Positions 325 to 46,002 of a stretch of DNA of 46,539 nt are shown here, one piece after another. This DNA is from Reclinomonas americana ATCC 50394 (lineage: Eukaryota). Numbering within the stretch: the first letter of the stretch is position 1; every line of letters starts with the position of its first letter. The notes under the pieces are model-generated. The model was not told where the DNA came from, did not search any database, and worked only from the letters and a program-made list of their open reading frames with translations. The stretch spans positions 1-46,539 of the forward strand of contig PS015232.1 of the NCBI GenBank assembly GCA_048213135.1. Reading direction: 5' to 3'. Both the position numbers and the translations under genes were made by a program.

Positions 325-3300
325 GGTACCCTGTGACAACCTTTTCACCTTCGAGCATCACCGCGGCGGTGGCCAACTCCTCGATCACTGTCACGGGAAC
401 CGGCATGGCGTCGACCGACGTGATGAAACTCGTGGTCGGCACCGACTGCAACAGCGTCTCGGCGACCTCTTACACCATGACGTTTTCGTCGACGACCGGC
501 CTGGTCTACGTGGCCACCACGTCGAATGCCAGCCTGGCGAAGAACTCGTACACGATTTGGTGCGCCTCGCCGGAGCCTGTTGTGTCGTGCTGGTTGCCTC
601 TGTGTGCTGATGCACGTGTGCAATCACAGCTACCAGTTCGCTGGATTTACAACATTCTTTGCCGTGAGCGCCACCCAGATTGAAGCCGGTGAGTGCAGCA
701 GTGGATGTGATGACAACACTCATCATGCTCAACTGCGTGTCGTACGCACAGTGCCTCCCGTCACTGGCTTTTCACCGACTGGGATCGTGTCGGAGACCAC
801 TGGCGAGCTGGTTACGGTGACAGGCACTGGCCTGGCCGCTGGTGACAGCATGCGACTGGTGGTCGGATCGGACTGCAACGACGGAACTGCGGCAAACTAC
901 GCCATGACATATGTGTCAGTGGCAGGCACGTCACCGACGATGGAATACACGGCGCGAACGGGCACCAACATCTTGGCCTCGAAGGCGTTCTCAGTGTGGT
1001 GAGTCTCATTCATTTGTGTGAGAATGTAGAGGGGGAGTAAGAGAAGCAAGAGGACGGAAGGGAGAGTGGAAAGGGAGAATGAGCGTGCTTGAAAGTAACT
1101 GTGTGTGATGAGTGAGAGAGTGTGGTTGGTGTGAGAGTGTGAGTGAGGAAGGGAGCGAAAGGGCGAGTGCAGTAAAGTAGTGAATAAGCGCGAAAGTGAA
1201 TGAGGGGGAAAGGGAGGAAATTAGAGAGTGAGCGAAAGAGAGTGTGTGAGTGAGTGGCTTGGTGGCAGATTGTAATTATAGCTGGATCATGCAACACGCT
1301 CGCTTGCTTTTATTTCTCACAATCTCTATTGCTTTCTCGCTCAATCGCTCTTTGCCTCACGTCCTTTCCCTTCGNNNNNNNNNNNNNNNNNNNNNNNNNN
1401 NNNNNNNNNNNNNNNNNNNNNNNNNNNNNNNNNNNNNNNNNNNNNNNNNNNNNNNNNNNNNNNNNNNNNNNNNNNNNNNNNNNNNNNNNNNNNNNNNNNN
1501 NNNNNNNNNNNNNNNNNNNNNNNNNNNNNNNNNNNNNNNNNNNNNNNNNNNNNNNNNNNNNNNNNNNNNNNNNNNNNCCAGCTACTTGTTCACCGGCTTC
1601 ACCAAATACATCCCCGTCACCACCGCCCAGCTCAACGTCGGTACGTATGAATCAGCCCTGCTCTTCCCTTCCTAGCCACCTCATCCTTGTGCATCAAAAC
1701 AGTCAAGTCGTTGGAGTCCTTTTCACCGACCAGCATCCGCGCCAAGACCGCCAATGAGTCCATTGTCGTTGTCGGTCACGGACTCACCAGCACCGACGCC
1801 GTCAGTTTGGTGATCGGTACCGACTGCAGTGTCGTTGGCGCGGCATCTTTCCGCTTGCGCTTCGTTTCCGCGGGTGGCACCGCCGGGGCCAGGACGCTCA
1901 CGGTCAAGGCGGCGGATACATCGCTGCTGTCTGGCACATTCAGCGTCTGGTGAGCTCTTCTGTTTTTCCATCGTTTCTGCGAGGTAATTCTCATTGTCAT
2001 TACCCCTGCAGCATTACATACACGATTGGATCATCGACTCTGACCGTGCAAGCTCCCGGCACACTAGCCTCTCGTGCGTCCTCGCGCACACGTGAAGAAA
2101 ATTTGTGCCTTTGCCTGACGACACCTGCACAGAGAAATCTGCCGACGCCTTCTCGCCAGTGAGCTTTCCCTCCGAGACACAGTATGCTGCCGTCACCATT
2201 ACCGGCGCAGATATGACCATGGGAGACTCAGTGGTACTGGCGTCCGGTGGCGGCTGCAACGACGTCGGGGCAACCATCACGGCTCTGGAGTTGGTGGCGG
2301 TGACTGGTGCGGCGGAGTCGACCACGGCAGTGGCACGAACTCCGGATACTAGCTTGCCACCCGGCGTTTACTCTGTGTGGTTCGTTCGTGCTGCATCACC
2401 GAGCCAGCGAATGTTTGGCGGAGGCCTCATCTTTTGATTGTGCGCTTGCAGCTACAAGTTCTCTGGCGACGCTTCGTACTTTACTGTCGGCGACTCGTCC
2501 CGGCTTTCCGTGTGTGCGTGCATCCATTCCTCTCATTGGTGTGTGCTGTTGCCTGTCTCAGACTTTCTCTGCACCACCACGCAGTGAAGACCATGGACAG
2601 CTTCCTGCCGGGAGGTATTCGAGCGCAGACGTCGGACGAGACGATTACGATCACCGGTCGCGGTCTGGCATCCACCGATGTGGTGAACTTGGTGCGCGGC
2701 AGCTGCACCAGCTTCCCGCGCTTCCTTTTGTTGCTGGTGTCTGCTGGTGGCAGTGCTGGAGCGCGGACACTGGCAGTCAAGGTCCCGAACGCCACGCTGA
2801 CTGCCGGCACGTACCTTGTCTGGTGAGATCAGTATGGGGAACGGAATCACCGTTGGTGCTCCTTATTCACACCCAATGTCTGTCTGTCTGTCTGTCTCTG
2901 TCTCTCTCTCTCTCTCTCTCTGTTTCTCTCTGTCTCTTTCTTGTGTGTGTGTGTGTCTCTCATTCGCTTTCTCCCTCTCTCTGTCCTTCTCTCTCTGTCT
3001 TTCTCTGTTTCCCCTCTCGCTTTCTCTCTCTGTCACTCTCTTATTCTCTCTCTCTGTCTCTCTGTCTCTCTCTCTCTCTGTCTCTCTCTTTCACTCTCTT
3101 ATTCTCTCTCTCCTCTCCCTCCATTCATCCCTCCTTCTCTCTCTCTCTCTCTTTGTCGCTGCGTCTCTCTCTTTCTCTTTCTGCCTATCTCTCTCTCCCT
3201 TGTGTGTCTCCCTCTGTGTCTCTCCCTTTCTCTCTCCCTCACTTTTTTCGCGTCACAGCATCCAGTACACACTGGCCTCCTCACCGACAACACTGACTGC

Positions 3301-5058
3301 TCAAACGGGCCTGCAGACCTCCATCACTGTTTGTGAGTGCGAAAGAAATGCAAGCATATCACTTTTTGTGTTGCTGACTGCGCAATGGTGCAGCACCCGT
3401 GGCGACCTCCATCACCTTCTCGCCGATTTCAATTGCCGCCGCCCTGCAGAGCCAGCAGATCACGCTCTCTGGGTCCGATCTGACCAGCCAGGACGCTTTG
3501 TTGTTGGTTGCCGGCGCCAGCTGCACCGCGCAGCCTGGGTACGCCATGCAACTGGCGCGATTCCAAGTTGATGGAGCGACGAGCTTGCGCACGGCCGTTT
3601 TTGGTACTCCAGACACGCTGCTGACAGTCGGAACGTACAACGTGTGGTACGCACAACTCGCCGCTGTAGTCTCCTAAGCTTAATCTCTGTGTGTTAACAA
3701 AGTCAGGCAACCCTGTGCAGTGTCCAGTTTGTTGGCTCCGTCTCGCCGACGCCAGTGAGTGGCGGACTGTTGACGGCTTTTGCACAATGTTGTGTCCTGT
3801 TTGTGTGCAATTCGCTTTCCCTTTCCATTGCGTTCGTGCTGATTTTGACTCGCGCCACAGCCACCAGCGGTCGCATCTCGTCGGTTTCAATCGCCATTCG
3901 CGCCGGACTGGCCAACCAGTCTGTCTACACCTCGGTGCCGACCAGCCAGTTCACCACCGCGCTCAGCGCACCAGCATTCTCTGTACGATCGACCAAGGAG
4001 TGCACGACGGCTGTGGCGTCCACGGCCGTGCAATCTGCAACTTCGTCGCCTGCTGGCACGGTCTACGATCTGGTGCTGGTTTTCGACACGACAAGCGAGT
4101 CGGCGGCGACCACGCGGTACCTGTGTGTCAGCGCTAACGGAGTGCTTGCGCCGCAGTTGGCAGCCACGATCACCATTTGTTGCGTGCCACTCACTTTTGG
4201 AGATGAATGATTGCAGCTGACACATCCGTCGCACAGACTCGATTACTGCTGTTACTCCGGCTATGCTGCCGCAGGGCTTGCTTGCCCAGCAGGTGCAGAT
4301 CACCGGCGCTGGCTTCTCCACGTCGATTCCAAGCACGGCTGCAAACGGCACGAATCCAGCGACTCCGGGACCGAGTGCAGCCGCGATCTTCTTGTCCACT
4401 TCGGCCACCTGTGCCTCAGCAGACGTTCCCGTCACAGTCAGCGCAGTTGCTCCGAATGCGATCCGCCTGGCCGTGTCGACGGCCTCTGCTGTGTCAGCCG
4501 CCTCGTGCACGTTCTACACAGCGGCGGAGTACCAGATTTGCTTGCGGTAAGCAACCTGTTGCACATTACTCGGCGATGCATCCCCCTCTCTCCCGCTCGC
4601 ATCTATCTCTGATTCTCTCTCTCTCTCTCTCTCACTCACACACACACACACACACTGTCCCGCGTTCGTTCTGCTGTCTCCATCTCTGTTCCTCTTTCTA
4701 TCTCACTCCCTCTCCCCTCGCTGACTCGCTGCCAGAACAACCCTCCTCTCTATCACCCTCACCTCTATCTCTATCTCCCTCACCCTCGCCCTCACCCTCA
4801 CCGACTTACTCTTGCTCTCTTCGTTGGTCTCCTCTCTTGCAAACCGTTGCATCTCTTTCTCTCCCTCTCCCTCTCCCTCTCTCTCTCCCTCTCCTCTATC
4901 CCTCACCCTGCCCCTCTTCCACTCCCTCTCCCTCGCCCTCCTCTTCCTCGCCCTCTCCCTCTTACTCTCGTCGCCGTCTCTGTCACTCTGTCTTTCTCTC
5001 CCTCTTCCCTTCTTCATCTCAACCCAATCGCCCTCACCCTCACCCTAACCCTCATCCT

Positions 5059-5145
<87 letters not shown>

Positions 5146-7154
5146 CCTTTCCGTCTCCCTGTTCTCTCTCCCTCTCCCTCTCCCTCTCCCTCACCTTGCC
5201 CCTCCCCTTCCCCTTCCCCCTTCCCCTATCCCCCTCTCCCTCATCCTTCTTCGCCCTCTCGAACACAGCTACCAAGACGGATCGTACGTGCCAGTCGGGA
5301 GCACGTTCACCATCACTGCCCCGGCCACTCCAGTCATTGGTTTCATGGTGCCGTCCAACTTTGCGCTGAACAGGGCCACGCAAGTGAGCATTCGCTCCGT
5401 GAACAGCGCGTTCACCAGCTGCACGCGCTTCCGCATTGTGGAAACGAACAGCGTGGTCAATCTCACTGACTGCCAGAACTCGGCGGCTTCTGGTTCGTCT
5501 CCTCCGTGCTCCGTTGCTTCTCATGTGGAATTCTCTGACGCACTCTTCGCCTCCAGCAACGGCGACGGTGTCGTCGTATGTGGCGGGAGTGCTTGACGCG
5601 TCGGCATGCTCAAGCACTGGCTGCTCCACATACACGATCTCGGTCACCGCCACGACGTCAGGAAACACCAAGCTGTGCGTCGCGACATACCCAACTGGTC
5701 CTGCCTCAGTGTTTGGAGGCGATAATGTGTCGTCGGGCATCACGGTGCAAACGTCTAGCGTGGCTGCCAACCAAGTGTCGACCACCGTGCGTTGTCGTTG
5801 ATGTTCTTCCTTCCCTGCTGTCGCTGACCCGAATTCACTTCTCCTCCGCGCACGCGCAGCTGTCGACGGGTACTGGTGTGCGCTCGTCGCTTATCACGCA
5901 CACATTCCCGTCGCCATTCGCTGGCACTCCGCGTGTCTTGATTGGCTTGTCGGCGATTGTCAACGAAACGGAGGACAACACGCAAGTGTTTTGTGGCATT
6001 CCCACCGTGACGACGACCGACGTGGCTGTTCGATGCTCGGTGTTTGGCACCACACGCCTCACGTCGCTGATCACCAGTTGAGCGCGCTCACTTGCCGACA
6101 TGCTCATCTGTGGCGTTGGTCTTACTGTCGACCTTGGCAGACTACATTGCGACTTACAGCCCTGTGGGCTCTGTTCTCACGTTTGCCGGGCAGACGGGTA
6201 TTATCCGGGGGCCGGCCATCTGGACGAACACGAGCACGAACAAGCGGTCGAGCATTGTTGCGTTGGAGAGGAGAAGATAGTGGGAGAAGGGATCGACTGG
6301 AGAGAAAGAGGGAGGAAGGGAGAGAGAGAGGGAGGGAAGTGAGAGAGGGAGTGAGTGAATGAGTGCATGAGAGTGAGCTCGAGTCATTGAGTGAGTGAGT
6401 GAGAGTGAGTGAGTGCAATTATAGGGTGTGAGAGAAAATCTGCAGATGCGCTGGCTGTGTGGATTCGAGTGCGGCTCACATTGGTCGTCTATGTTGCCGC
6501 AGTTGGTCAACGTTCGCCAGGTTCAACAGTTTGAGTATCCGCCAAGTGTCGCCGTCGTTCTGTCGGGCGTCTCGACTGTGCGCTTGGCCGGTGCCGGCAA
6601 CATCCGCAACGAGGAGTTTGAGGTGGCCGTCAGTCGGCAGAGTGGAGGCAACACGGCGTCACTGCGGCTGACAGTGCGCGGCGACAGTCGAGTGGAGAGC
6701 ATGGCCTGCCGGTACTTGTTCATTGGCTCCGCTATCGACGAGCGCGACAACATGTCGGGATACATTATGCTCAGCGGAGGTGTGTGTTCTATATTGAGTG
6801 GTGCCACCTCGGCTCCCAGCGTATTCTCAACTGTGTTTGGCCACTACAGAGACCAAGCATGTGGGAACAGCGGCTGTCACTGCGTCGTTCATCAACAGAA
6901 GTGCCGCACCCTACGGCCTGCGCCAGTCAGGCTTCCAGTACGCCCTCTTCCTTCGCGGGTGGAAGACACTAACGACGACGGCCGGCAGCGTCGCGCCCTC
7001 TATCCTCCACAGCAACGGTGTGCCGGAACAGGGCACGGCCCCGACAGGCGCATACGGTCGCTTGGTGATCACGCCGTCGAGTGGTGCGCAGATTGGCGAG
7101 ACGTACGTGACGTGGGTGGCCATCGCCATGCCCGCTCGAGTCAATGGCAACTAA
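325..7154 (+). CDS. Large multi-exon, probably extracellular protein: ~8 tandem ~100-aa Ig/IPT(TIG)-like beta repeats, then C-terminal H-type-lectin-like domains; 5' end outside window
   Basis: Inferred exons: 325-559, 630-688, 752-998, 1582-1640, 1703-1949, 2012-2073, 2133-2379, 2452-2513, 2585-2822, 3259-3332, 3394-3646, 3721-3788, 3861-4178, 4237-4546, 5269-5492, 5557-5786, 5860-6076, 6141-6256, 6503-6779, 6850-7154 (TAA). All GT-AG and frame-compatible. Repeat consensus FSP.si....ITVTG.GL.S.D...LV.G..C....Y.VC. C-terminal motifs THTFPSPFAGTPRVLIGLSAI and QQFEYPPSVAVVLSGV resemble the H-type lectin F...F..PP.V..L pattern. Domain names are by eye. Confidence 0.75.
5031..5146 (+). repeat. 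(CACCCT)n hexamer microsatellite in intron 4547-5268
   Basis: Near-perfect array with one CCCTAA unit and one CATCCT unit. Confidence 0.95.
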
Positions 7155-7975: not shown

Positions 7976-8030
7976 GTGCGACAGACAAGTGACGAATGAC
8001 CTCTCTCTCCCCCCCGTGTCTCTCACACAC

Positions 8031-8593
8031 CTGATACTCCGCCACACACTCCATCAGCTCCGCATAACGCGTGGCCAGTGCATCACAGCGCGGCGACGCC
8101 TCCGCAAACCGCTCTTGCAGATACAAGCGCATAATCGCGCGATCAGGCGTCACAGGCATCGACTCCACCTAAAAAAAAAAAAAAAAAAACAAGCACACAA
8201 ACAGAGAGAGAAGGGGGAAGGGAGGGAGGGAGAGAGAGAGGGAGGGTGAGACAGAGAGCAAACATTCACTCACTCACTCACTCTCTCACTCACTCCCTCA
8301 CTCACTCACACACTCACTCACACACTCACTCGTGCACGCTCACTCAAACCCCACTTAAGAGAGAAAAAGCGATGGATATAAACGCCTAAAGCGATGCCTA
8401 AACTGCACTCTCTCTCTCTCTCTCACACACACACAATGAATGCATCCTTCAGTCTCTCTCTCTCTTTCTCTCTCTCTTGTTCTTCTCACGCAACTTGCGC
8501 AGTGGGCTTTGCGTGTGTGGAAGTCACTGCGGCAGACACTCGTCCACTCACACCACGATAGATGCGTTGGAGTGCTTGATCGAGTCTTTGCAT
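8031..8593 (-). CDS. Small hypothetical protein (two visible exons; 3' part in or beyond the gap)
   Basis: Exon 8593-8495 (MQRLDQALQRIYRGVSGRVSAAVTSTHAKPTAQ), donor A|GTTGCG at 8494, polyT-TAG acceptor at 8169. Exon 8168-8031 (VESMPVTPDRAIMRLYLQERF...ALATRYAELMECVAEYQ), donor G|GTGTG at 8030. A possible last exon starts at 7249. Faint, unverified resemblance to FMC1/LYR-type mitochondrial proteins. Confidence 0.5.
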
Positions 8594-9090: not shown

Positions 9091-9198
9091 TGTGTGTGTG
9101 TGAGTGAGTGAGTGAGTGAGTGAGCGAGTGAGTGAGTGAGTGAGTGAGTGAGTGAGTGAGTGAGTGAGTGAGTGAGTGAGTGAGTGAGTGAGTGAGTG
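9091..9198 (+). repeat. (GT)n/(GAGT)n microsatellite upstream of ABCA
   Basis: Direct reading of the sequence. Confidence 0.95.
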
Positions 9199-9259: not shown

Positions 9260-12200
9260 ATGGGAACTCTCTTGGCTCTTCTTCGTCGCAAGCGCACGAT
9301 TATAGTTGCGTCGCTGTTGTATGAGCTCCGTCCGTCCGTAGCAGGAGAGATGGCGAGGAAAATGGAAGTGGATGGTGACAAGAAGCCGATGAGATGCGAT
9401 GGAGATTTTTTTCGGTGATCGCTCTCTTCTGTTGTGCGACACTGATGCACACACACACACACACACACTCTCTCTGGCATGCACTCTTGTGTACACTGAT
9501 GCACACTCGTGCATTTTGCAGGAAGAATTCTCGAACATGCATGCATGCTGACTACTCCGTGCATTCTCACTTCCTCACCTCTCTCTCTCTCGCACGCACT
9601 CACTTACGCACATTCGCTCACTCGCCAACACACTCTCTTCTCTCTCTTCTCTCACTCAGACTCGCTCTTGCATGCTCGTGCAGTTGCAGGAGAAATTCTC
9701 GATCATGCATGCGTGCTGACTACTCAGTGCATTCTCACTCTCTCACCTCTCTCTCTCTCGCACACACTCACTTACGAACATTCACTCACTCGCCAACACA
9801 CTCTCTTACTCACTCTGTCACTCACTCTGTCACTCATCTCTCACTTCCTTCCCTTCTCTCTCTCCCCTGTCCTTTGTCTCTCTCACTCACGCCCTCGCTT
9901 CTGTCTGCGCTATCCGTTTCTCTCCTGCCTTCTCCCTCATCCTCCCCTCTCACTCTCTCACTAATGCAGAGTCCGCTCGATCTCTCCTCCGTCCCTTCCT
10001 CCTTTCCATTCCTCACTCCCGCATCCCCTCGCTTCTATCTGCGCTCCCGTTTCTCTCCTGCTTCTCCCTCATAATCCTCTCTCCGTTTCTCACTCGCACG
10101 GAGACTGCTCGATCTCTCTCTGTCCTTCCTCCTTTCCATTCCACCCCTCGCTTCTGTCTGTGCTCTCCGTTTCTCTCCTGCTTCCTCCCTCATGCTCTCC
10201 TGTCGTACGTACACTGTTCACACCCTCCCTTCCCCGTTCCCGCCCCTTTCCCTTCTCCCTTACCCATTCCCTTTGCCCTTTCCCCTTTACCCTTCCCCTT
10301 CCCCCTCACCCTCCCTTCTCCCTCTCCCCCTTCCGCCTTCTCCTTCTCCAGTGGCGCAACCGACGCGCCTTCTTCCTCGGCCTCATGACACCCTGCGTGT
10401 TCGTGCTCGTCGCCGGCATCCTGTACAAGGTGCTGACGCCGTCGCCTCCGACGCCCACCTCCCTGACGCCCGAGTTTCGTTCCTTTCCCACTCCTCCCTC
10501 TCCCTTCTTGAACCTCTCATCACTGTGGATTCGCAGTCACTTCTCCGGCCGCCCCACTGTGCCGTACCAGGCGCTGGGTGCGGTTGATGCAGGGCAAGTG
10601 GCGGCGATCCTGTCGGCGGGCATTGCCGGCTCGTCACTGGTGCTGAACAGTGTCGCTTCGTCGACAAACTTCAACACGTACTTGGAGAACAATGCGGCGG
10701 ATTACCTGACGGGAGTGACGTTCTCGGCGGCGTCGCCCTCGTCCGCCTCTGTCAACACGTACTTCAACAACACCTCGTCGAACTACGACTTGTTGAGCAC
10801 GGTGTCGCTGGTGGCCAATGGCCTGTTGCGCACGAGCACCAACAACCAGGCGCTCTCCATGCCCGGCTCGATGCTCATCTATCCGAACTTCAACCTCGCC
10901 GATTTCACCTTTTTGTTCACTGGACCCGTGCTGTACGGCTACGGTCTGGTGTTCATGAGCACGACACTGGTGATTCTGGTGGTCACCGAGCGCGAGAAGC
11001 ACCTCAAGCTCCAGCTGCAGCTCTCGTCACTGCCGCTGCGCATGTACTGGCTGGGCGAATTCATCAGCGATTACCTATTTGTGCTGCTGGCCTCCATCTT
11101 GATGCTGATTCTCGGCCTCGCCTTCCAAATGCCACCATTCCAGGGCAACATCTCCCCACTCATCTACATCATCTACTTTTTACTGATGCCCGCCTGCCTG
11201 GTGCTCTTCGTGCACTGCCTCTCGTTCCTGTTCAACTCGGCCGAGAATGCCACTCGTTGCGTTGGGTGGGAGGGCGATGCGTGAGGGAATAGTTTGTTGA
11301 CTTCAAATGCAGGCTTCTTCCCGCTGGTCCTCTCCATCTTCACCATTGTTCCGTACTACATTATTCGCTTCGTCTTTGGTGGGCTCAACTCGACACCGCC
11401 CGATGGGTGAGTGCTCGCGCGTGCATGCTGTCTTCACAACTCCGCTGACACCCCGCTTTTATTCGCGCAGCCCCAACATTGGCTTTAGCGTGATCCCGAC
11501 CTACTCGATTTCATTTTTCTTGCAGCTGCTGACGCAGGCGACGGCCCTCAAGAGCACGCTGCCGGCCGGTGCCATTGTCTCCAACACCACCATCCTGTCG
11601 CTCTACTTGATTCAGCTGGGCGAGATCGCCGTGTTTGCCGGCATCATTGCCACGATCGAGTACGTCAAGTTCCGCCGCCTCCGCACCGGTGCGCTGCGTG
11701 CGCGCAGCGCCACGTTTGTGCCATCGCCCGACGAGGACGACGATGTGCGGGCCGAGAGGGAACGCATCAACCAACGGCGTTGCGTTTTGTCTTGCTTGTC
11801 GCTCGTCAGCATTTTCTGTGCTGTGCTTACGTCTCGCGTCGCAGATGGACAAGGTCATGTGCTCGAGGTCAAGAACGTGAACAAGCTGTTCGGCCTAAAG
11901 CACGTTGTCAACAATGTGTCTCTCGGAGTGGGCATGGGCGAATGTTTCGGTCTGCTTGGCCCCAATGGCGCCGGCAGTTGAGTGCTTGTGGACTCGTGCT
12001 GCTTGTTTGGCGAGGCTAATCAGCGCTTGCTTTCTCAGAAACCACTCTGATTGGCGTGCTGACGGGCGTGGTCGGCCCGTCGGCTGGCGACGCCTCGGTG
12101 CAAGGCCNNNNNNNNNNNNNNNNNNNNNNNNNNNNNNNNNNNNNNNNNNNNNNNNNNNNNNNNNNNNNNNNNNNNNNNNNNNNNNNNNNNNNNNNNNNNN

Positions 12201-35192: not shown

Positions 35193-35252
<60 letters not shown>

Positions 35253-38200
35253 CTCCCCTCTCCCCTCGCAGCCCACTGCCTCCTTCACATTCTGCTTCTC
35301 ATTCTGCATTCTCTCTCGATTGTATCGATCTCCTGCTTTCGCTCTCTCTCTTTGTCGTTTTCTGCTCTGCTCTCTGCTTCCCTTGCAGAACACTGTCCTC
35401 CTCTCACCGCTCTCTCGGCTGTTCATCTGTTTGTCTCAACGCATACACACCCTGATCATTTCTTTTCTTCTCTCTGCCCTCTGCTCTGTTCTTCGCACTG
35501 TGCTGTGCTGTGTTCTGCTCTCCTCTGCTGTCCTCTGTTCTTCTCCACTCTGCTCTGCTCTGTTCTGTGCTCTGCTCTCCTCTTCTCTCCTCTGCCGTGC
35601 TGTGCTGTGCTCTGCTCTCCCCTGCTCTCCTCTGCCCTGCTCTGCTCTGCTCTGCTCTCCTCTGCTCTGCTCTCCTCTGCTCTTCTCTGCTCTCCTCTGC
35701 TCTCCTCTGTTCTTCTCCACTGTGCTCTGTTCTGCTCTTCTCTGCTCTTCTCTGCTCTCCTCTACTCTTCTCTGCCTCTGCTGTCCTCTGTTCTTCACCA
35801 CGCTGCTCTGTTCTGCTCTCCACTCCTCTCCTCTCTTCTGCTCTGCTCTTGCTCTTCTCTCCTCTCCTCTGCCGTGGTGCTCTGCTCTCCCCTGCTCTCC
35901 TCTGTTCTCCCCTGCCGTACTCAGCCCTGCTCTTCTCTCCACCGCTCTTCTCTCCTTTACTGTGCTCTGCGTGCTCTGCTCTGTTGTGCTTTGCTCTGCT
36001 CCCCTGCTCTCTTCTGCTCTTCCTGTTCTCCCTCAATTTTCCCCTCTATCTTCCCTTTCCATCATCCACCCTGCCCCCCTCTCGTCCACGTTCCCGTTCT
36101 CCCTCTCGCCCACCCTTATTCCCTCTCTCCCACCCTCATTCCCTCTCTCCCACCCTCATTCCCTTTCTCCCTCTCATCCACCCTTCCCCTTCCCCTCCCT
36201 TTCTCCCTCCCTCCTCCCCCTTCTCCCTCCCTCCTCCCCCTTCTCCCTTCTCCTCATCCACCCTTCCCCTCACATCTCACCCACCCTTTCCCTCTTCAGT
36301 NNNNNNNNNNNNNNNNNNNNNNNNNNNNNNNNNNNNNNNNNNNNNNNNNNNNNNNNNNNNNNNNNNNNNNNNNNNNNNNNNNNNNNNNNNNNNNNNNNNN
36401 NNNNNNNNNNNNNNNNNNNNNNNNNNNNNNNNNNNNNNNNNNNNNNNNNNNNNNNNNNNNNNNNNNNNNNNNNNNNNNNNNNNNNNNNNNNNNNNNNNNN
36501 NNNNNNNNNNNNNNNNNNNNNNNNNNNNNNNNNNNNNNNNNNNNNNNNNNNNNNNNNNNNNNNNNNNNNNNNNNNNNNNNNNNNNNNNNNNNNNNNNNNN
36601 NNNNNNNNNNNNNNNNNNNNNNNNNNNNNNNNNNNNNNNNNNNNNNNNNNNNNNNNNNNNNNNNNNNNNNNNNNNNNNNNNNNNNNNNNNNNNNNNNNNN
36701 NNNNNNNNNNNNNNNNNNNNNNNNNNNNNNNNNNNNNNNNNNNNNNNNNNNNNNNNNNNNNNNNNNNNNNNNCCACCTCCTCCCCCACCACCTCCACCAG
36801 CCCCGGTGCAGCAACCGCCGACCGTGGAAGAGTTCCGCCGCCGGCCGGGCGTGCGCATGGAGGTCTTCAACGTGCTGGAGATGATTGTGGAGGTGCCGGA
36901 CCCGACGCAGCCGAACGGCCGACGCATTGTGCGCACCTACACGCAAGTGGACCGTGTGCCGGGTGGCGATGCGGTGGTGCAAGACCCTGCGCCGCCGCCC
37001 GCCACCGTCGAGCAGGTGCTGCAGGTGTACGACGCGGCGCTGGATGCGGCCGAGGAGGCAGTTGCAACCGGAAGCATTGCCTCAGTCGCCGGTGCGGTGA
37101 TTGACGTGCACGGCCCGCTTCCCGCCCCCGCCCCCGCGCCCGCACCCCCTGCCGTCGAGGCTCCCGCCGAGCCTGCTCCTGTCGCAGCAGCAGCAGCAGA
37201 ACCCGCCGCCGCCACTTCCACCACCACCACCACCACCACCACCGCTGCAGCCCCTCCCGCCGATGACTCCATTCCGGGGGCGACGGAGAACGCCATGTAT
37301 GTGGTGAGCGTGCTGCGCAGCATGGGCGCCGAGGTGGATTTCGTGTTCGATCGGCGGCGGCACAATCTGTTCATCGGCAGTGCGACGAGCGACGCCGGCT
37401 ACGCCGAGGCCATTTGTGCCGGCTGTCGCTGCGTGAATGAGCGGTGGCTGGTGCGCTGCCACAATTCGCTGTCGCTGCTGCCGACGTCGGATGTGGATTT
37501 CCAGATTACGCCCAGTAAGACGATTGCGGCGATGGAGAGGATGGTGCGTTACAGGGGAAGGGGGAGAGGGGGAAGGGGGAGGAAGGGGAGAGAAGGGGAA
37601 GGGGGAAGGGAGGAGAAAGGGAGAAGGGGGACGGGAGGAAGTGTGGAGAACATACGTGCTAAATGTGTCTTTCAGTTTGCCACACAGCGCAGAGATATAC
37701 TTGCTTGCTTCAGGAGAGCGGCTTTCCAATGATGCTTTGTTCGCTCTATCCGTTTGTGTTTCCGCGACTGAATGAGCACACCTTTCTCCTCAGCTCTTCT
37801 ACTCCTCATCGGTAGTTGTTTCTTCTTACTTGCAGTGCATCTTCACTCATTTCTCTGCCATTCGACTCCACTTTTTGATGTGTTGTTTTTTATGTGCCAT
37901 CACTGCATTCTAATCATTGTCTCTCTTCTGTTTCCTACTTCGCAGACAATTGCAGTCACCGGATTCCAGGTTTGTTTCTTGCAACACTCGTCGCGCCTCA
38001 CTGTCACGTGCAACTTATCTGAATGCTCGCAGGGCGTGCCTCGCGAGGAACTCAAGCGGTACATTCAGTACATCGGAGCGCGCTACACGGGATACATGAC
38101 GCGTGAGAACACGCATCTCATCTGTCTCAAGTTTCGTGACTGTTGATTCACACGGTTATCAAACATTTTCCTTGTGTCTCGTGGCGTAGAGTGAACCTGT

Positions 38201-41200
38201 AAGTGACTGACACAGAGCGAGAGACACAGTGTGAGCGATTGAGAGAGAAATCTGAGTGGAGCAGTTCGGAAGTGCAGGGTTGTTGAAAGAGCGAGTCTTC
38301 GTGTTCATCCTTTCGCCTTTTCTACTTCATTCATTATTGCATCGTATCCCTTCTTCCCTCTTTCTTGTTTTTCTTCGTTGTGGAGAGCTAGATGTAGACA
38401 ATGGAGCGAGCAAGCTGAGTGCAGAAAGGCGTGTGAAGCCTTCATTTCTTCCTCTTTGCGTTCTTCTTCAGTTTCTTGTGTCTTTTCCGCTTTTTTTGTC
38501 TTCTGTCCCTTCTCTTTTTCTGTTGCCGTCTTGTCCTCTTGCGATGTGTTTTGGTGTTCTTGTTCTGTCGCTCTCCGTCTTAATTCCTCGCTTCACTAGT
38601 CGCACTTTGTTTGTCAGAGGAAGAGAAAGAGAAGAAAGGAGACAAAGTGGCGCGTTTGCATTCTCAACACGCTTCTCTTCTCCTCATTTTCTTGTTATCT
38701 TCTGCTTCCACTTGCTTTCGAAGTCCTCCTGCTCTTCACAGTTTCAGAAGCGCGTCGTCCGTTGCATTTTCTTCATTGGATCTGTTCTTTTCCTTTCGAA
38801 CCTAATTCCCTTCTCCTTCCCATGTAATTACTCATGCTTTTCCCCTTTTCTCTCTTGTCTCTTGTTCTTCTCCCTTTTCCTCCTTCCCCTTCTCCCTTCC
38901 CTTTTCTCCCTTCCCTTTTCTCCCTTCCCTTTTCTCCCTTCCCTTTTCTCCCCTATCTCTTCCTTTCCTCTCCCTTCCCCTCTCACTCTCCTCCTTCTCC
39001 CCCCGCAGGGCCGAGGGCGNNNNNNNNNNNNNNNNNNNNNNNNNNNNNNNNNNNNNNNNNNNNNNNNNNNNNNNNNNNNNNNNNNNNNNNNNNNNNNNNN
39101 NNNNNNNNNNNNNNNNNNNNNNNNNNNNNNNNNNNNNNNNNNNNNNNNNNNNNNNNNNNNNNNNNNNNNNNNNNNNNNNNNNNNNNNNNNNNNNNNNNNN
39201 NNNNNNNNNNNNNNNNNNNNNNNNNNNNNNNNNNNNNNNNNNNNNNNNNNNNNNNNNNNNNNNNNNNNNNNNNNNNNNNNNNNNNNNNNNNNNNNNNNNN
39301 NNNNNNNNNNNNNNNNNNNNNNNNNNNNNNNNNNNNNNNNNNNNNNNNNNNNNNNNNNNNNNNNNNNNNNNNNNNNNNNNNNNNNNNNNNNNNNNNNNNN
39401 NNNNNNNNNNNNNNNNNNNNNNNNNNNNNNNNNNNNNNNNNNNNNNNNNNNNNNNNNNNNNNNNNNNNNNNNNNNNNNNNNNNNNNNNNNNNNNNNNNNN
39501 NNNNNNNNNNNNNNNNNNNNNNNNNNNNNNNNNNNNNNNNNNNNNNNNNNNNNNNNNNNNNNNNNNNNNNNNNNNNNNNNNNNNNNNNNNNNNNNNNNNN
39601 NNNNNNNNNNNNNNNNNNNNNNNNNNNNNNNNNNNNNNNNNNNNNNNNNNNNNNNNNNNNNNNNNNNNNNNNNNNNNNNNNNNNNNNNNNNNNNNNNNNN
39701 NNNNNNNNNNNNNNNNNNNNNNGAAATGATGATCGGCTGATTCTCTTTCTCCCACCCTCCCTCCTCTCCCTCCCTTCCCCCCCTTCTCCCTCCTCTCCCC
39801 CACTAACCATCCTCCTCATCCCCGGCATACACCGACGGCTGCGCGTAGATGCACGTGCTCAACAACACCGACGACGGCGGGTTGCGCATGCGCTGCACCT
39901 CCAGCATCTCCATCTTGAAGCGCCACTCGCGCAGGAAGCGATCCGGCTCAATGTCCAGGGTGCTGTAGCGCTCCTCGGGGAGGCGCTGCCAGTGGAGCAT
40001 GCAGTCGAAGAGCCAGTGCATGTTGACGATGCGGATGTTCCAGTCCTCGGCCTTGGTGTATTTTTNNNNNNNNNNNNNNNNNNNNTCCTCTCCTTTAACC
40101 CTTGATCGTAAACCTTCCCTTTGCTGTAACCCTCGATCATCAATTCTCCTCTCCTTTACCCCTTGATCGTCATCCCTCTTGCAGTAACCCTCAATCATTA
40201 TTTCTCCTCTCTTGTGACCCTTGATCGTCAACCCTCCGTTTCCTGTCACCCTCGATCGTCATTTCTCCTCCGCTGTGACCCTTGATCGTCAACCCTCCGT
40301 TTCCTGTCACCCTCGATCGTCATTTCTCCTCCGCTGTGACCCTTGATCGTCAACCCTCCCTTTCCTGTATCCCTCGGTCATCAATTCTCCTCTCCTGCAA
40401 CCCTTGATCGTCAACCCTCCCTTTCCTGTATCCCTCGGTCATCAATTCTCCTCTCCTGCAACCCTTGATCGTCAACCCTCCCTTCCTGTAACCCTCGATC
40501 ATCAATTCTCCTCTCCCTTAACCCTTGATCATCAACCCTCCCTTTCCTGTAACCCTCGATCATCATTTCTCCTCCTTGGTTGTCACCCATCTTCTGTTCT
40601 GCAACCCTTGATCATGGATTCTCCTCTCTTTTGACCCGTGATCGTTTCTCTCTTTGCTTCCTTCGTCTTTCTTGGTCAGTGGTGCAATTTGACTCGTAAC
40701 CTCGATCACCAATTCGTTATCACGTTCCTTATTCTTTTCCTCTCCCCCCTGTCGCTTCCTCTATTGCCGTTTACCCGCGATTATCAACTTGCGTCCATTC
40801 CTGTTCATCCTCCGTCGATCAATCGCAATCACTAATCGTTGATCGCTCCCTTTGCACCCCCCTTTCCCTCATACCCCCTTTCCCTTCTCCTTCCCCTTAC
40901 ACCCCCTCCTTCCCCTCCATAGACATGACCAGCGACGACATCACCATGTCCACCATCCGCTCCTCACCCATCTCGTCGAGCTCCCACGCCCCCGGCACCC
41001 CACCGATCTCCATGCTGACGCCACCCACTCGCCCGCCCCTGACGGCCACACCTCCCCTGTCCTCCGCTGCCGCCAGCGAGTGCACCGAGGACAGTGCGAG
41101 TGGGCGGGAGCGCGCGACCAGACAGCCACGCGCGCGTGCCAGCAAGCGCAGTCTCGCCGCGGTGGATGCAGAGCTGCGAGTGCCGCACATCAACGCCCCC

Positions 41201-43683
41201 GGCGCGCGTGTGTTCCTGTTTGCCGGCGACATTCAGCGGTCGCGCAAGTTCAAGCAGTTGCGCACACTCTGTTGGCGAAGGATGTTTCTTCCGAGACTCA
41301 CTCTTGCGTCGCAGCACGGTGGAACGACTGGGAGGTCTCGTCCTGCTGCCACCGTAGCGTGTCCTGCACGGCGAGCGCGCACTGACTGTCTTCTGCACAG
41401 GAACGCTGCGCACCCGACGCAGTCACTTTGTGCCCGGCTGCACGCATCTGGTCACCAACAACATTTCACGCACTGAAAAGGTGCTGTGCGCCATGGCTGC
41501 CGGCTGCTGGATCCTGCGTGCCGAGTATCTGTTGCGTCCCTTTTCCCAGTACAACCATGAGTTCTGTCGCTGACTCGGGTGCAGCGACGAGTGCGCCAAG
41601 GCCGATCGCTTCCTGCCCGAGGAGGACTTTGAGTATTTCGCCGAGGACTGGGACAAGGAGCGCAAGTTGTGGTTGGCGTCGCCGCGCAGCTGGCGTGTGT
41701 ACAAGCAGCGGCATGGGCATGGAGGGATGGCAGGGAGGCGAGGTGAGTGGTGGAGAGGGAAGGGAAAAGGGGGGAAAGGGAAAGAGGGTGGGAAGGGGAA
41801 ATGGAACGGTTTATCGAGAAGAGAGTGGGCGAGGTAGAGAGCACGGCCGATGGTTGTATCGAGAGGTTCGAGACAGAGAGCGAAGAGAGTGGGTGAGGAG
41901 GAGAGCACAGCCGATCGCTGAATCGAGAGGAACAAGCGCAGAATGGAGGGAAATGATGGAAAGAGAGAGAAGAGAGTGGGCGAGGTGCAGAGCACAGCCG
42001 ATAGCCGGACCGACAGGAGCAAGACGCAGAAGGAAAGCGAGAGAGAAGAGAGTGGGCGAGGTGGAGAGCACAGACTATAGCGGAATCGAGAGGACAAAAC
42101 GCAGAAGGAAAGGGAAATGATGGAAAGAGAGAGAAGGGAGTAGGTGGGGAGGAGAGCACAGCCGATTGCTGAATCGAGGGGAACAAGATGCAGATGGAAG
42201 GAAAAGGGGTGGAAATAGGAGAAGAGAGTGAGCGAGGTGCAGAGCGCAGCTGATTGCTGAATTGAGAGGACAAGACGTAGATGGAAGGAGAACGGGTTGA
42301 AAGAGACTGGGCGAGCTGAAGAGCGCAGACGATTGCTTAATCGAGAGGACAAGACGCAGATGGAAGGAGAACGGGTGGAAAGAGAGAGAGAAGAGAGTGG
42401 GCGAGGTGCAGAACACAGCCGATTGCTGAATGGAGGCCACGCAAGACGCGGAAGGGGGTGAAACGGGTTGCAAGAGAGAGGAGAGAGTGGGCGAGGTGTA
42501 GAGCACGACTGATTGTTGATTCAGGAAAAGGTAAGGAAACGGATTGACAGAGAGAAAAGAGTGGGCGAGGTGCAGAGCGCAGCCGATAGCTGCATCGAGA
42601 GGAACAAGACGCAGAAGGAAAGGGAGACGGGGAATGGCAGATGGAAAGTGAGAGAAAGCGAGAAAGAAAAGCTACCGCAACCGGTGTTTGAGAAGAAGCA
42701 GACGCAAAAGAGATGAAATGGAGTAATGGGAGAGTAAAATGGAATGAGTGAGAGTGAGAAAGACAGAGAGAGTGTGTGTGTGTGTGAGAGAGAGAGAGAG
42801 GTTGAAAGCGCAACAGATTGCTGAATCGAGGTGGAGAAGGATATGGAGATGAGAATCTGGAGTGCAGCGGATTTGTGAGATTGAGCACCCGCATAGCGGA
42901 ACCGGCTGACTCTGAGACAAACTAAACTCTGAGTAGCTGCCCTAATATGCCTGCTCTGTTTGTTAATCTGTTTCTGCACTTACCGGCGATAGCCACTTGT
43001 CGTCTTCTTGTTCCTAGCTCAACACTTTCCCTCCACACCACTCGTCCTCCACCCTTCTCCCTCACTCTTCCTTCTCACTCTTCTCCTTTCCCTTTACCTC
43101 CACCCTTCTCCCTCAACCTTCTCCCCCACTTCTCCCTCAATCCCTTCCCCCAATTTGCAGTGGCCATTCACAAAGACGCCAGCCCCTACTACGAATTGCT
43201 GTGCAACATTGTGGCGGAGGGCGGCGGCGAACCAATCACCCTCATCGGCAGCACAACGCATATCCTTTTTTTGCTTCGCCCCAAGCGTCCCGCGCCTCCC
43301 TTTTCGCTTGCTCTGTTGTCGTCCTTGACTCCTCAGCGCACTCAGTGCCGCCCATGTGTGTTTCGCGGTCGTGCCCGACGCCGGCCTGCCCGCCGAGTTG
43401 CAGGAGATGGAGGCGCTCGCCACTGGTGAAGTGCCGGCAGTCCGCGGTGCCTATCTGCTCGACTATTTCGCGTCTGAGGAGCCGCCGGACATTGTGCGTC
43501 CTGTTGCTCACAGTCGCCGATGATGTGCTTGTTTTGCTGACTTTCTGCTCGTGCTGCAGGCGGATTACACCTTCCCGGTATCTTCGTGTGAAATTGCGTA
43601 CGATTGCCCACCTCCATTCGTCACTTACGCCCTCCTCACAGGCCACCAGACCGTCGCGCACCGTGAAACGCCAGCGAATATAA
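33543..43683 (+). CDS. Four-BRCT DNA-damage scaffold protein (N-terminal PTIP/Rtt107-like pair, C-terminal TopBP1 BRCT7/8-like pair)
   Basis: Body 36773-43683. Motifs: VLRSMGAEV...CVNERWLVRC; TIAVTGFQ|GVPREELKRYIQYIGARYTGYMTRENTHLICLK|AEGEKYTKAEDWNIRIVNMHWLFDCMLHWQRLPEERY (KYTK onward lies on inverted contig 39723-40065); VERLGG...CTHLVTNNISRTEKVLCAMAAGCWILRAEYL|DECAKADRFLPEEDFEY; SPRSWRVYKQRHGHGGMAGRRV; ends ...VKRQRI* at 43683. The start exon 33543-33563 (MEDEGDA) is tentative. Confidence 0.82.
35480..36020 (+). repeat. Degenerate (CTCTG)n pentamer tract
   Basis: Direct reading of the sequence. Confidence 0.85.
40087..40640 (+). repeat. Minisatellite, 61-nt unit made of two ~30-nt accctYgatcRtca subunits, in a BRCT gene intron
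   Basis: cttgatcgtcaaccctcc recurs at ~40220, 40281, 40342, 40403 and 40464. Confidence 0.9.
41820..42620 (+). repeat. Degenerate minisatellite, ~75-90-nt unit, about 10 copies, in BRCT gene intron 41743-43160
   Basis: Recurring agagtgggcgaggtgcagagcacagccgattgctgaatcgagaggacaagacgcaga. Confidence 0.88.
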
Positions 43684-44084
43684 GCTCGTGCTGCCCTCAT
43701 TGTTCACCGCATCTGTTGCCATCATTTGCAGCTCTGCTCACCCTCCAAATGCACAAGCTATGGTGCGTGGTAACAGTTACAACCATCTCAGTCTCTCTTC
43801 AAACTGTAGGCACTGGCTGCGGCTCGTGAGGGAGCGACACCGATGCAGACTATTGTCTGCGTCTCATCAACCAAATGCAGTGCGCCTCATCAACCAAACA
43901 CAATGCATCCATCCGCTAACTCTTCCCGTCCTTCTCTTCGTCACTGACAGAGAACAATAGTCGTGGCGCAACTCAAGTTCAAGGAACCAAGTGAATGCAT
44001 CCACTCTCACCTCCTCGGTATTGCACGCTCGAACATGGGTGTGACGCGAGGAACAGCTTCACAACCATAAACCTTGACTGCTGC

Positions 44085-44365
44085 GTGAAAAAGTGTCCCT
44101 CACCAACTGCTCCCTCTGTGCCGTAACAATTTCCCTTCAACCGCAAACTGTATTGCTCTCTCCGTCACGCTCTCGTGAAAAGTGTCTCTCACCAACTGCT
44201 TCCTCTGTGCCCAGTCCCCTTCAACAATTACCCTTCAACCGCAAACTGTATTGCTCTCTCCGTCACGCTCTCGTGAAAAGTGTCCCTCACCAACTGCTCC
44301 CTCTGCGGCAAGTCCCCTTCAACAATTTCCCTTCAACCGCAAACTGTATTGCTCTCTCCGTCGCG
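44085..44365 (+). repeat. Tandem repeat, ~90-98-nt unit, three copies, between the convergent BRCT and RPN12 3' ends
   Basis: gtgaaaagtgtc.ctcaccaactgct...cccttcaaccgcaaactgtattgctctctccgtc at ~44085, 44175 and 44273. Confidence 0.9.
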
Positions 44366-44400
44366 CTCCCCCATTCGAGTCTCCCTCTTCCTCTCTTTTC

Positions 44401-46002
44401 TCAGATGATTCGCTCCAGCTCCTTGGCGTACGCCAGCGCCTTGCTGATAATGTTGCGCGCCGGCACCACGTGCTCCTTGGTCTCCTCCGACTGGAAGATG
44501 AACTCGCCGTTCTGCTCTCGCCAGCCCAGGTTGTCGGTGAAGGCCTTGAGCTCCTGCAGCGAGTCGAAGAGCAGCATGCGGCACGCCTCGGTGACGCGCA
44601 GGCGCTCAAACGACTTTTCCGCGCAGGCCGCGAACTCCTTACTGTGGAGGGGCAAGGGGGAGGGGAGAAGGGGGGAAGGGAGAAGGGGGAATGGGGAGGG
44701 GGGAGAAATGAGAAGGGAGCAAGAGAGGCACAGACACAAGTGCACGGATACAGTACGGAAGAAACGAGAAGGGAGCAAGAGATAGACATACACAAATGCA
44801 CACATACTCGCCAAGAGATACAGAACAGGGAAGCAACGAGATGGGAGGAAGAAAACACTTGAACAATGTCCTCACTCATCCCACTCATTCTCTTCTGCAC
44901 ACTGCCAACGCACCGCACAGTCTTCATCAGCTCCTCCACAAATAGGGCGTACGTCGGGTGTGGTACGTCCATGCGCGAGGCCCAGACCTTGGAGTAGGCG
45001 CCCTCCATGAGGTGGCGCTCCAGCTTGACCGGGTGCGTGATCCACACGTTGGATTCGCTGTGAGTAGAAGGGAAAGGGGGGAGGGTGAGGAAGAGGAAAG
45101 GCAACGGTGAGGTTGGGGAGGGTTAAAGTGAGGGTGCATGGCAAGAAAACTAGGAAGACGAAGAATGAGAGGATGCCGAGGATTCATGAGCACAACCAAG
45201 GATGACAATGGGTGAGAGCAGAGCAAGATCAACGCAGAGCAGGTGACGAGAGGACAAGGCGGTGAGTGAATGAGCAGAGCATAAGGCAGCGGCAGCAGAG
45301 CGAGAAACGCGCCAAGGGAAAGGGAGAAAAAATGAGCAGGAGAACGAGAGGAACGACGGCAAATTGCAAGAGCGGGATATGTGGAGGGAGGTGCGAGAGA
45401 TGGAGCAGAACAATAGGGACTGGCAGCGGCTGCAGAGATAGAATGCGCCAGGAAACGACAGAAACGACGGCAAATTGCAAGAGCGGGAAATATGGAGGGA
45501 GGTGCGACAGAGGAGCAGAACAACAGGGACTGGCAGCGGGGCAAAAGCAGAACGAGGATCACGAAAGAAAGCGGAGGAACAAGAGCCAGAGAAACAACAG
45601 CAAAGCGCAAGAAGATCGAGGGAGCAGCGAGATGTAGCGACAATCGCAGAGTGCCTGTCCTGTTCTCACTCAATCCCATTGTCTCTATCCCGCCCTTTCC
45701 TCCCGTCGCACTCACCGCTGGTCAATCGGAATCAACTCCAACTCGGTGTGGAAGCGCGCACGTGAGTGCTGCGCCAGCAATCGGAGCAAGTTGAGTCCGC
45801 GGATCATGTACTCGCGTTCTGACGGCCGTGCCTTGCCACTGCAATGACAAGAGTGAGCTGGAGGGACACAGAGGGCAAGAGAGTGGGAGGGCGGCGCACC
45901 GGAAGTCGGTGTAGTACGTCTTCAACTGCGCCATGTTGATGTCGAATGCGTCCAGGTCGCCCATGCGTGCGCACAGCAGTACGGCGTTCTCCAGCGTGTC
46001 GC
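44401..46002 (-). CDS. PSMD8: 26S proteasome regulatory subunit RPN12/PSMD8; 5' end outside window
   Basis: Four exons: DTLENAVLLCARMGDLDAFDINMAQLKTYYTDF; SEREYMIRGLNLLRLLAQHSRARFHTELELIP; SNVWITHPVKLERHLMEGAYSKVW...VPHPTYALFVEELMKTVR; KEFAACAEKSF...ISKALAYAKELERII* (TGA 44403-44401). Confidence 0.95.
45350..45540 (+). repeat. Direct duplication, ~110-nt period, in an RPN12 intron
   Basis: acgacggcaaattgcaagagcggga...ggagggaggtgcga occurs at ~45353 and ~45463. Confidence 0.85.

Follow-up and report, generated by a model that had tools for sequence, protein, structure and literature searches.

The window analysed here, a stretch of 46,539 bases from Reclinomonas americana ATCC 50394 (contig PS015232.1), is a GC-rich, intron-rich eukaryotic scaffold whose 5' splice sites (donors) occur in two registers one base apart, with the register tied to the last base of the exon (position -1). 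Three-frame reading, Pfam profiles and homologues place at least nine genes on both strands of the window, in which 12 N runs account for 5,003 positions and CT/GA stretches of low complexity are frequent. The genes are as follows.

345-7154, + strand: gene with IPT/TIG repeats
8593-8030, - strand: gene fragment
9260-15243, + strand: ABCA-like half transporter (homology to the protein P0002)
about 16100-20640, + strand: SF1/UPF1-like helicase (Pfam AAA_12, homologues)
21097-23672, + strand: pectinacetylesterase/Notum-like gene (Pfam PAE)
27309-23745, - strand: amino-acid permease (Pfam AA_permease_2)
33426-29110, - strand: IMP4 (Pfam Brix)
33543-43683, + strand: multi-BRCT gene (Pfam BRCT)
about 46003-44401, - strand: CSN8/PSMD8/eIF3k-family gene (Pfam CSN8_PSD8_EIF3K)

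Donors were called by hand from three-frame reading and homology, and the list from an earlier, sequence-only reading of the same DNA was compared with ours only afterwards. All junctions are predictions from sequence, based on this one window and on homologous proteins. The 87 curated introns all begin with GT, and reading frames are restored when they are removed. Most are 50 to 75 nt long and end in CAG, with a minority of low-complexity introns of 0.2 to 2.7 kb. The U12-type donor RTATCC was found in none of the 87 curated donor contexts, the shifted ones reading GTTG[CA]G.

These 87 GT-AG donors comprise 56 unshifted donors preceded by G (written G/GT, the slash marking the exon-intron boundary), 21 shifted donors that read GTTG[CA]G, 3 shifted variants and 7 unshifted donors preceded by a base other than G. 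The strict shifted class (21/87) makes up about a quarter of the window's introns, and it follows A in 9 cases, T in 8, C in 4 and G in none. Expressed by the preceding base, GTTG[CA]G accounts for 0/56 of the G(-1) donors and 21/31 of the non-G donors (24/31 when the variants are included), and the -1 base differs sharply between shifted donors and all unshifted donors (P = 3.6e-14, Fisher's exact test, 87-donor set). The dependence was equally evident in the first 85 donors (0/55 G(-1) versus 20/30 non-G, P = 2.1e-12), in the 79 donors that remain without low-confidence rows (0/54 versus 18/25, P = 1.7e-12), in the 63 best-supported donors (P = 2.6e-12) and in the 11 ABCA donors that were checked against P0002 (0/6 versus 5/5, P = 0.0022). 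The low-confidence donors, 8 of the 87, are those at 3789, 8030, 8494, 10474, 18396, 33564, 43201 and 43578.

Every coordinate given in the sequence-only reading is present in this independently assembled set. That reading had counted 23 shifted donors, all following A, C or T; our set holds 21 strict ones, or 24 with the variants, and G precedes none of the 21. It had also stated that none of its ~58 G/GT donors reads GTTGCG or GTTGAG, which holds for all 56 of ours (the closest being 24177, G/GTTGGA), and that donors of the form G/GTT mostly keep G at +5, as 6 of 7 do here (23129, GTTCAT, does not). The six unshifted non-G donors that it named were recovered, and 43201 was added to them at low confidence. 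The observation that donors occur in two registers tied to the -1 base is thus confirmed within the window. The strict shifted donors are the following.

4179-4185, + strand: T/GTTGCGT, IPT/TIG gene, phase 1, paralogous to the exon-B donors of other repeats; 58-nt intron with CAG end
6077-6083, + strand: A/GTTGAGC, IPT/TIG gene; 64-nt intron; the exon end is forced there by a TGA in frame that overlaps the motif
6257-6263, + strand: T/GTTGCGT, IPT/TIG gene; in-frame stop 19 nt downstream; 246-nt intron
8488-8494, - strand: A/GTTGCGT, low confidence, gene fragment with ATG at 8593; 33-codon open reading frame (ORF) up to the motif, in-frame TGA within the motif, next ORF after TTTAG at 8168
9305-9311, + strand: A/GTTGCGT, ABCA-like gene, first intron, 1047 nt; the joined N-terminus equals P0002 in length
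11256-11262, + strand: C/GTTGCGT, ABCA-like gene; gapless against P0002 (..ENAT R FFPL.. versus ..ETAQ R FFIT..)
11779-11785, + strand: C/GTTGCGT, ABCA-like gene; 66-nt intron; one-residue difference from P0002, versus a 21-residue insert on read-through
11977-11983, + strand: A/GTTGAGT, ABCA-like gene; splits Walker A as GPNGAG/K/TT, with codon A+AA giving Lys as in P0002
14161-14167, + strand: C/GTTGCGT, ABCA-like gene; the YRL-to-ELPP stretch has 39 residues, as in P0002
16221-16227, + strand: A/GTTGCGC, medium confidence, N-terminal part of the SF1 helicase; frame continuity only
17156-17162, + strand: A/GTTGCGT, medium confidence, helicase; frame continuity, 58-nt intron
18396-18402, + strand: C/GTTGCGT, low-confidence candidate, after a possible 15-nt micro-exon at 18381-18395
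18694-18700, + strand: T/GTTGCGT, helicase; both flanks align to 5 homologues, with a small indel
18776-18782, + strand: T/GTTGCGT, helicase; gapless; codon T+TG gives the L of VDNL, kept in 5/5 aligned homologues
19324-19330, + strand: T/GTTGCGC, helicase; gapless, AD/VVC conserved among homologues
20471-20477, + strand: T/GTTGCGT, helicase; gapless (..VVGHWPTL.. versus ..VVGSISTL..)
23022-23028, + strand: A/GTTGCGT, PAE/Notum-like gene; the adjoining exon covers positions 162-253 of the Pfam PAE profile
23302-23308, + strand: A/GTTGCGT, PAE-like gene; frame continuity, 69-nt intron
33564-33570, + strand: T/GTTGCGT, low-confidence candidate, multi-BRCT gene; 7-codon first exon that starts at the ATG 33543, then a long intron of low complexity containing N runs
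41257-41263, + strand: A/GTTGCGC, multi-BRCT gene; next exon TVERLGG
41531-41537, + strand: T/GTTGCGT, multi-BRCT gene; the exon matches RTT107_BRCT_5 profile positions 53-82

The three variants of the shifted class, which depart from GTTG[CA]G at a single base, are these.

3789-3795, + strand: T/GTTGTGT, low confidence, the analogue of G/GTGTGT; 72-nt candidate intron 3789-3860
10474-10480, + strand: A/GTTTCGT, low confidence, the analogue of G/GTTCGT; 63-nt candidate intron 10474-10536, pyrimidine-rich with CAG end
38131-38137, + strand: A/GTTTCGT, multi-BRCT gene; the BRCT profile match reaches position 48 at the exon end, and a stop in frame follows 13 nt further on

Since the candidate introns at 3789 and 10474 are stop-free and multiples of three in length, their retention would keep the frame and splicing is not forced. 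Around 18295-18451, a GC-AG intron (G/GCGAGT, from about 18300, with its acceptor before 18452) is as frame-compatible as the reading with the micro-exon and the donor at 18396. The unshifted donors are listed next, beginning with the seven that lack G at -1.

2074-2079, + strand: C/GTGCGT
2514-2519, + strand: T/GTGCGT
3333-3338, + strand: T/GTGAGT
5787-5792, + strand: C/GTGCGT
17864-17869, + strand: A/GTGAGC
43494-43499, + strand: T/GTGCGT
43201: T/GTGCAA, low confidence
G/GTT donors named in the sequence-only reading: 2380, 5493 and 12716 (+ strand) and 39807 (- strand)
G(-1) donors, + strand: 560, 689, 999, 1641, 1950, 2380, 2823, 3647, 4547, 5493, 6780, 11407, 12716, 12909, 12996, 13137, 14355, 17048, 17283, 17375, 17624
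G(-1) donors, + strand, continued: 17758, 17952, 18544, 18882, 18985, 19158, 19479, 19611, 19785, 19983, 20253, 21480, 22663, 23129, 23462, 37544, 37970, 41335, 41743, 43578
G(-1) donors, - strand: 8030, 24177, 24354, 24447, 26525, 27033, 30624, 31098, 32587, 32803, 33423, 39807, 44913, 45715, 45899

In three - strand genes (IMP4, the amino-acid permease and the PCI-family gene at 44401-46003), 13/13 donors are G/GT and none is shifted, relative to 24% shifted donors overall; this could be chance (about 0.03) or could reflect a preference of housekeeping genes for strong donors.

When the two classes were aligned with a one-base shift, they agreed at every intron position. Whereas the G(-1) donors are degenerate (n = 55; G in 38 at +3; A in 21, C in 21 and T in 11 at +4; G in 49 at +5), the shifted donors are near-invariant, with C at +5 in 19/21, and their T at +7 (17/21) mirrors the T at +6 of ordinary donors (37/55). 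Rare variants run in parallel as well, GTTTCGT corresponding to G/GTTCGT (2380, 5493) and GTTGTGT to G/GTGTGT. The correspondence extends into the exon. The base that precedes the aligned heptamer is G in 0/21 shifted and 5/56 ordinary donors, where it is position -2 (P = 0.32, Fisher's exact test), and in both classes G is rarer there than the 29% G of coding sequence (binomial P = 7e-4 for shifted and 2e-4 for ordinary donors); one base further upstream, C is found in 12/21 shifted and 24/56 ordinary donors. That shifted donors never follow G can therefore be restated as a property of both classes, namely, that the base preceding the heptamer is rarely G. The perfect core is found in 17/21 shifted donors (GTTG[CA]GT) and 5/7 unshifted non-G donors, versus 20/56 G(-1) donors (GTG[CA]GT). 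The proposal of the sequence-only reading that both classes align as G-(G or T)-T-G-(C or A)-G gains support from the T at +7, the parallel variants and the shift on the exon side. Taken together, these observations support the view that both classes are one heptamer, G-(G or T)-T-G-(C or A)-G-T, cut at its first GT.

The position of the cut was assessed against homologous proteins. P0002 is an ABCA-like protein of 753 residues that is 44% identical over the ABCA query exon and was the only match in the protein collection; it was aligned along the whole ABCA gene by tblastn and by eye, and a Protein Atlas comparison of the ABCA exon gave the family assignment only. For the helicase, a first search of the protein collection with one exon returned no match, and an exhaustive protein search returned 15 distant helicases (36 to 49% identity), which were used for junction checks. 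Nine shifted junctions fit these homologues, five against P0002 (9305, 11256, 11779, 11977 and 14161) and four against the helicases (18694, 18776, 19324 and 20471). Removing the introns at 9305, 11256 and 14161 leaves stretches of exactly the P0002 length, and six helicases align without gaps over 18776, 19324 and 20471, with a small indel over 18694. Pfam profile coordinates likewise continue over neighboring exons (AAA_12, 80-141 and 144-193; Brix, 1-51 and 56-153; CSN8_PSD8_EIF3K, 38-83 and 85-142). A metagenome scan recovered four loci, just 25 to 35% identical to P0002 and unsuited to a comparison of orthologous introns. At 12792 and 12804, in-frame CAG acceptors lie 12 nt apart, and the upstream one fits P0002 without a gap.

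Were the introns instead to start with TT, with the G left in the exon, the mRNA would be altered at 14 of the 21 shifted introns, given that the next exon begins with G in only 7/21. Conservation favors N/GT at three junctions: cutting one base later would change the Walker A Lys to Arg at 11977 and the Leu of VDNL to Trp at 18776, and a conserved Trp at 9305 is retained only when the cut precedes GT. As far as these alignments go, the shifted introns are therefore GT-AG introns in which the consensus is displaced and the cut, as predicted, is not.

Because donors were curated by eye both in the sequence-only reading and here, GTTGCGT sites might have been chosen for their donor-like appearance, and the -1 rule might then follow from the choice of boundary. 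A dynamic-programming gene finder, which scored codons by usage, acceptors by a matrix and donors by a two-class model that saw only positions +1 to +8 and was blind to exon bases, served solely as a control for this bias (early versions merged genes, called antisense genes and missed small exons). It recovered the rule among 72 donors, 57 of them shared with the curated set (shifted in 0/38 G(-1) versus 16/34 non-G donors, P = 5.4e-7). Run without any splice-site model, the finder was noisier: with the final codon table it proposed 57 donors, 34 of them curated (0/27 versus 9/30, P = 0.002), and with a six-exon codon table 58 donors, 27 of them curated (1/23 versus 5/35, P = 0.39). The single G case in the latter run was a donor at 39881 (+ strand, G/GTTGCGCA), which was rejected since a BRCT exon occupies the opposite strand there, on an inverted contig. 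A donor proposed at 29154 (- strand, T/GTTGAGAC) was also discarded, as read-through of the last IMP4 exon, within which it falls, yields the conserved EW.LRPYMN tail.

Motif counts bear on the same question. GTTGCGT occurs 16 times on both strands of the window, versus 4.0 +/- 1.9 expected, and none of 100 dinucleotide-preserving shuffles reached 16; each of the 16 copies is a curated donor oriented with its gene. Unused sense-strand GTTG[CA]G sites number nine (10792, 10825, 17747, 20619, 22430 and 33479 on the + strand; 32628, 29154 and 39863 on the - strand), and T at +7 is absent from all nine. A general avoidance of GGTTG was rejected as the source of the rule, since non-donor GTTG[CA]G sites follow G at about the background rate (9/45, from 66 sites minus 21 donors; 9/47, or 19%, in the working count). 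Separately, the unused site at 17747 (A/GTTGCGC) lies within an exon 11 nt 5' of the used donor 17758, and an apparently unused G/GTGCGC at 19273 lies inside exon 19221-19323; both could join acceptors further downstream in frame, which makes them candidates for alternative splicing.

The explanation that we favor, while giving it only about an even chance of being correct in full, is that a single heptamer occurs in two registers, is read as a unit by a U1-type 5' end and is cut at its first GU; both the identity of the reader and the way in which the cut is fixed are inferred. In this mechanism, the heptamer would be G-K-U-G-M-G-U. With G as the second letter, the cut would fall after the first G, where the first GU begins (H-G/GUGMGU); where the second letter is U, as in 21/87 donors that mostly read GUUGCGU, the first GU would be found at the first G itself (H/GUUGCGU). 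The heptamer would be read as a unit early in splicing, presumably by U1 snRNA, through its 5' end in standard or diverged form, with the first G of the heptamer opposite C9, the nucleotide that usually reads -1. The catalytic spliceosome would then set the cut at the first GU. Early reading of the unit combined with cutting at the first GU would uncouple the recognition register from the cut site by one base. By analogy with shifted sites in human genes, it is plausible that the cut is set separately by U6, U5 and Prp8, and likewise plausible that loss of the exonic G under coding constraint is what produces the shifted class, although that loss may be a mere correlate.

Several points weigh against this explanation. 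The entire data set is one 46.5-kb window in which the donors are predicted, 8 of the 87 are of low confidence, and the curator knew the motif. Seven unshifted donors without G at -1 show that G at that place is not obligatory, a class left out of account by the wording of the sequence-only reading that recognition needs a G opposite the -1 position. Further points come from predicted pairing (RNAduplex) with the standard U1 5' end as printed in Tan et al. 2016 (PMC4856993), which may not be the host's. The mean duplex energy is -7.5 kcal/mol for G/GT donors and -2.5 kcal/mol for unshifted non-G donors, but shifted donors average -1.7 kcal/mol, a very weak predicted pairing whichever register is taken. 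In 56/56 ordinary donors +1G pairs with C8; among the shifted donors its partner is C9 in 7/21 and position 4 in 2/21, never C8, and in 12/21 the best duplex leaves +1G out. Finally, C is preferred over A at the M position in 19/21 shifted versus 26/63 unshifted donors (P = 9e-5). The preference follows the -1 base, with C at intron base 4 (unshifted) or 5 (shifted) in 24/28 non-G donors versus 21/56 G(-1) donors. Since C at M is a mismatch for standard U1, either the U1 of this organism is not the standard one or GCG is read by something other than U1.

The last points are the ones that a dedicated reader would accommodate: a diverged or second U1-like snRNA, or a protein factor, could match GUUGCGU directly, with no slippage. 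We consider this a minority prospect, albeit the strongest of the alternatives. It fits the near-invariance of the shifted core relative to the ordinary one and the preference of non-G donors for C at M, where standard U1 would pair with A, and a hypothetical 5' end complementary to the window consensus is predicted to lift the shifted class from -1.7 to -7.3 kcal/mol. However, an Rfam scan of the window returned no matches, and thus no snRNA or snoRNA, and intron bodies, branch-like motifs and acceptors are alike in both classes. Moreover, an RNA that paired contiguously with the seven intron bases would still do so in the shifted register, which makes a dedicated reader of this kind a sub-case of the explanation favored above. 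In any event, the weak predicted pairing and the C preference may leave room for a diverged reader. A second alternative, in which U1 would bind in its normal register (+1G to C8, +2U to A7) with the helix looping out the extra U at +2/+3 and continuing from GCGU, appears improbable to us. Its intron side, GU-U-GCGU, fits as well as the shift does, and human sites with bulge +2/+3 registers have been described (Tan et al. 2016, PMC4856993; PMC9311317). But such a bulge would leave C9 free for G(-1), so that G would be expected there as in ordinary donors (56/63), whereas it is found in 0/21. With the standard U1, no best duplex places +1G on C8, and for CA/GUUGCGUG the explicit bulged structure (+2.2 kcal/mol) is 3.6 kcal/mol worse than the explicit shifted pairing (-1.4 kcal/mol), which makes the shift preferable, weak as both pairings are.

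The remaining two alternatives concern the introns themselves. That the rule is an annotation artefact strikes us as very unlikely. The noise of the neutral finder, its nonsignificant result in one setting and the introns at 3789, 10474 and 18396, which neither frame nor stops force, speak for it. Against it stand the nine shifted junctions set by alignment to homologues, several of them gapless; the in-frame stops that follow soon after the motif at 6077, 6257, 8494 and 38131; the recovery of the rule by a finder blind to -1; and a heptamer that is four-fold over-represented, always sense and at the end of an ORF. The unusual uniformity of the donor heptamer could also suggest a mobile, introner-like family that carries a GTTGCGT end and inserts after non-G bases, but this is the least credible of the readings considered and was rejected on interior similarity, lengths and acceptors. 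Among 62 short introns (16 shifted, 44 ordinary and 2 variants; introns 8030 and 39807, whose acceptors are unassigned, were excluded), shifted-intron interiors are no more alike than other pairs (mean, -0.19 versus -0.24; maximum, 0.11). Median lengths are 66 nt (shifted) and 64 nt, and the acceptor is CAG in 19/21 shifted and 58/61 ordinary introns.

A dependence of the -1 base on positions +3 to +6 is a general feature of 5' splice sites, reflecting compensation between the exon and intron sides, and is captured by maximal dependence decomposition. As in this ordinary compensation, the intron side is stronger in donors of the window that lack G(-1). The ordinary form, however, adds strength without a change of register, whereas 24/31 non-G donors in the window also shift by one base.

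Recognition in a shifted register has precedent in human 5' splice sites. At these sites (Roca and Krainer 2009, as summarised in PMC4856993 and PMC9311317), all U1 pairs move by one position, +1G takes the place of -1G, U at +2 faces C8, and the cut remains at GU. The shifted pairing had to be proved site by site, with suppressor snRNAs. Tan et al. (2016, PMC4856993) note that varied U1 registers need not entail varied U6 helices, which corresponds to the suggestion of the sequence-only reading that cleavage is set separately. The likeness includes the exon, as position -1 is A, not G, in the example oligonucleotide (ACA/GUCAAGUAU type) that Tan et al. 2016 give in Table 2. In other respects the two differ. 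According to the same sources, human shifted sites are rare, atypical and carry an AAGUAU-type tail, whereas the window has 21/87 shifted donors with a strict GUUGCGU of their own; these carry C where standard U1 wants A, are predicted to pair weakly with it and are known from sequence alone. Human bulge +2/+3 sites (Roca et al. 2012, as cited in PMC4856993 and PMC9311317) resemble the window in having an extra U right after GU with the remaining consensus displaced by one base, but they keep exon-side pairing, with G(-1) allowed or favored, in contrast to the 0/21 found here. Strict GTGCGTG donors have been reported for Ostreococcus lucimarinus introns outside chromosome 2, together with the proposal that snRNAs may have changed to match them (Irimia and Roy 2008, PMC2483917). 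Ostreococcus and the window share the GC-rich donor core GUGCGU in place of GURAGU; yet Ostreococcus is intron-poor with one uniform donor, and the accessible text of that paper describes no shifted class, whereas the window is intron-rich and combines degenerate ordinary donors with a uniform shifted class. No report of an abundant shifted donor class was found in the literature searched, which was covered in part and without supplements. Relative to the human sites, what is new is the scale (21/87), the dedicated strict heptamer and the C preference, shifted U1 pairing itself being already known.

Some further features of the window are independent of donor register. The start codons of IMP4 (33426, - strand) and the multi-BRCT gene (33543, + strand) diverge with 116 bp between them, an arrangement that resembles a divergent promoter. 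A 343-bp contig (39723-40065, between N runs 39020-39722 and 40066-40085) is inverted in the scaffold, since BRCT profile positions 20-48 lie at 38033-38128 on the + strand and the remainder (positions 57-78) at 40063-39824 on the - strand. The N run at 12108-12545 spans 438 bases, although the P0002 alignment lacks no more than a single residue (K) there (..ASVQG [gap] SIFSYE..), so either the gap size is wrong or the run hides a whole intron. Tandem repeats with long units (61 nt x8, 93 nt x3.3, 255 nt x2.9, 98 nt x2.5 and 168 nt x1.9) occur within introns or just 3' of genes, the repeat-bearing regions being 40086-40575, 27753-28062, 41875-42622, 44125-44368, 9506-9827 and about 31750-32450; by eye, the long IMP4 intron holds about three copies of a ~120-nt unit. 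Rfam identified no RNA family within the tandem repeats of the window.

For annotation, a gene finder built on a single register would put about one in four of this genome's exon ends in the wrong place, whereas GTTGCGT alone marks a donor in 16/16 cases within the window. A bolder version of the favored explanation holds that about one in four introns is defined in the shifted register by a near-invariant GUUGCGU, that uncoupling is routine genome-wide and that the C preference implies a U1 5' end unlike the almost universal ACUUACC; we regard this as possible but more doubtful than the mechanism outlined above. Should the U1 5' end instead prove to be the standard ACUUACCUG, the C preference would be left unexplained and other readers would be indicated. 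The data suggest that finding the start of an intron and cutting it are separate steps and that this organism uses their separation routinely. If this is true, the two donor registers would be a natural experiment on the handover of the 5' splice site from recognition to catalysis, on which element fixes the cut and on the co-evolution of splice signals and snRNAs.

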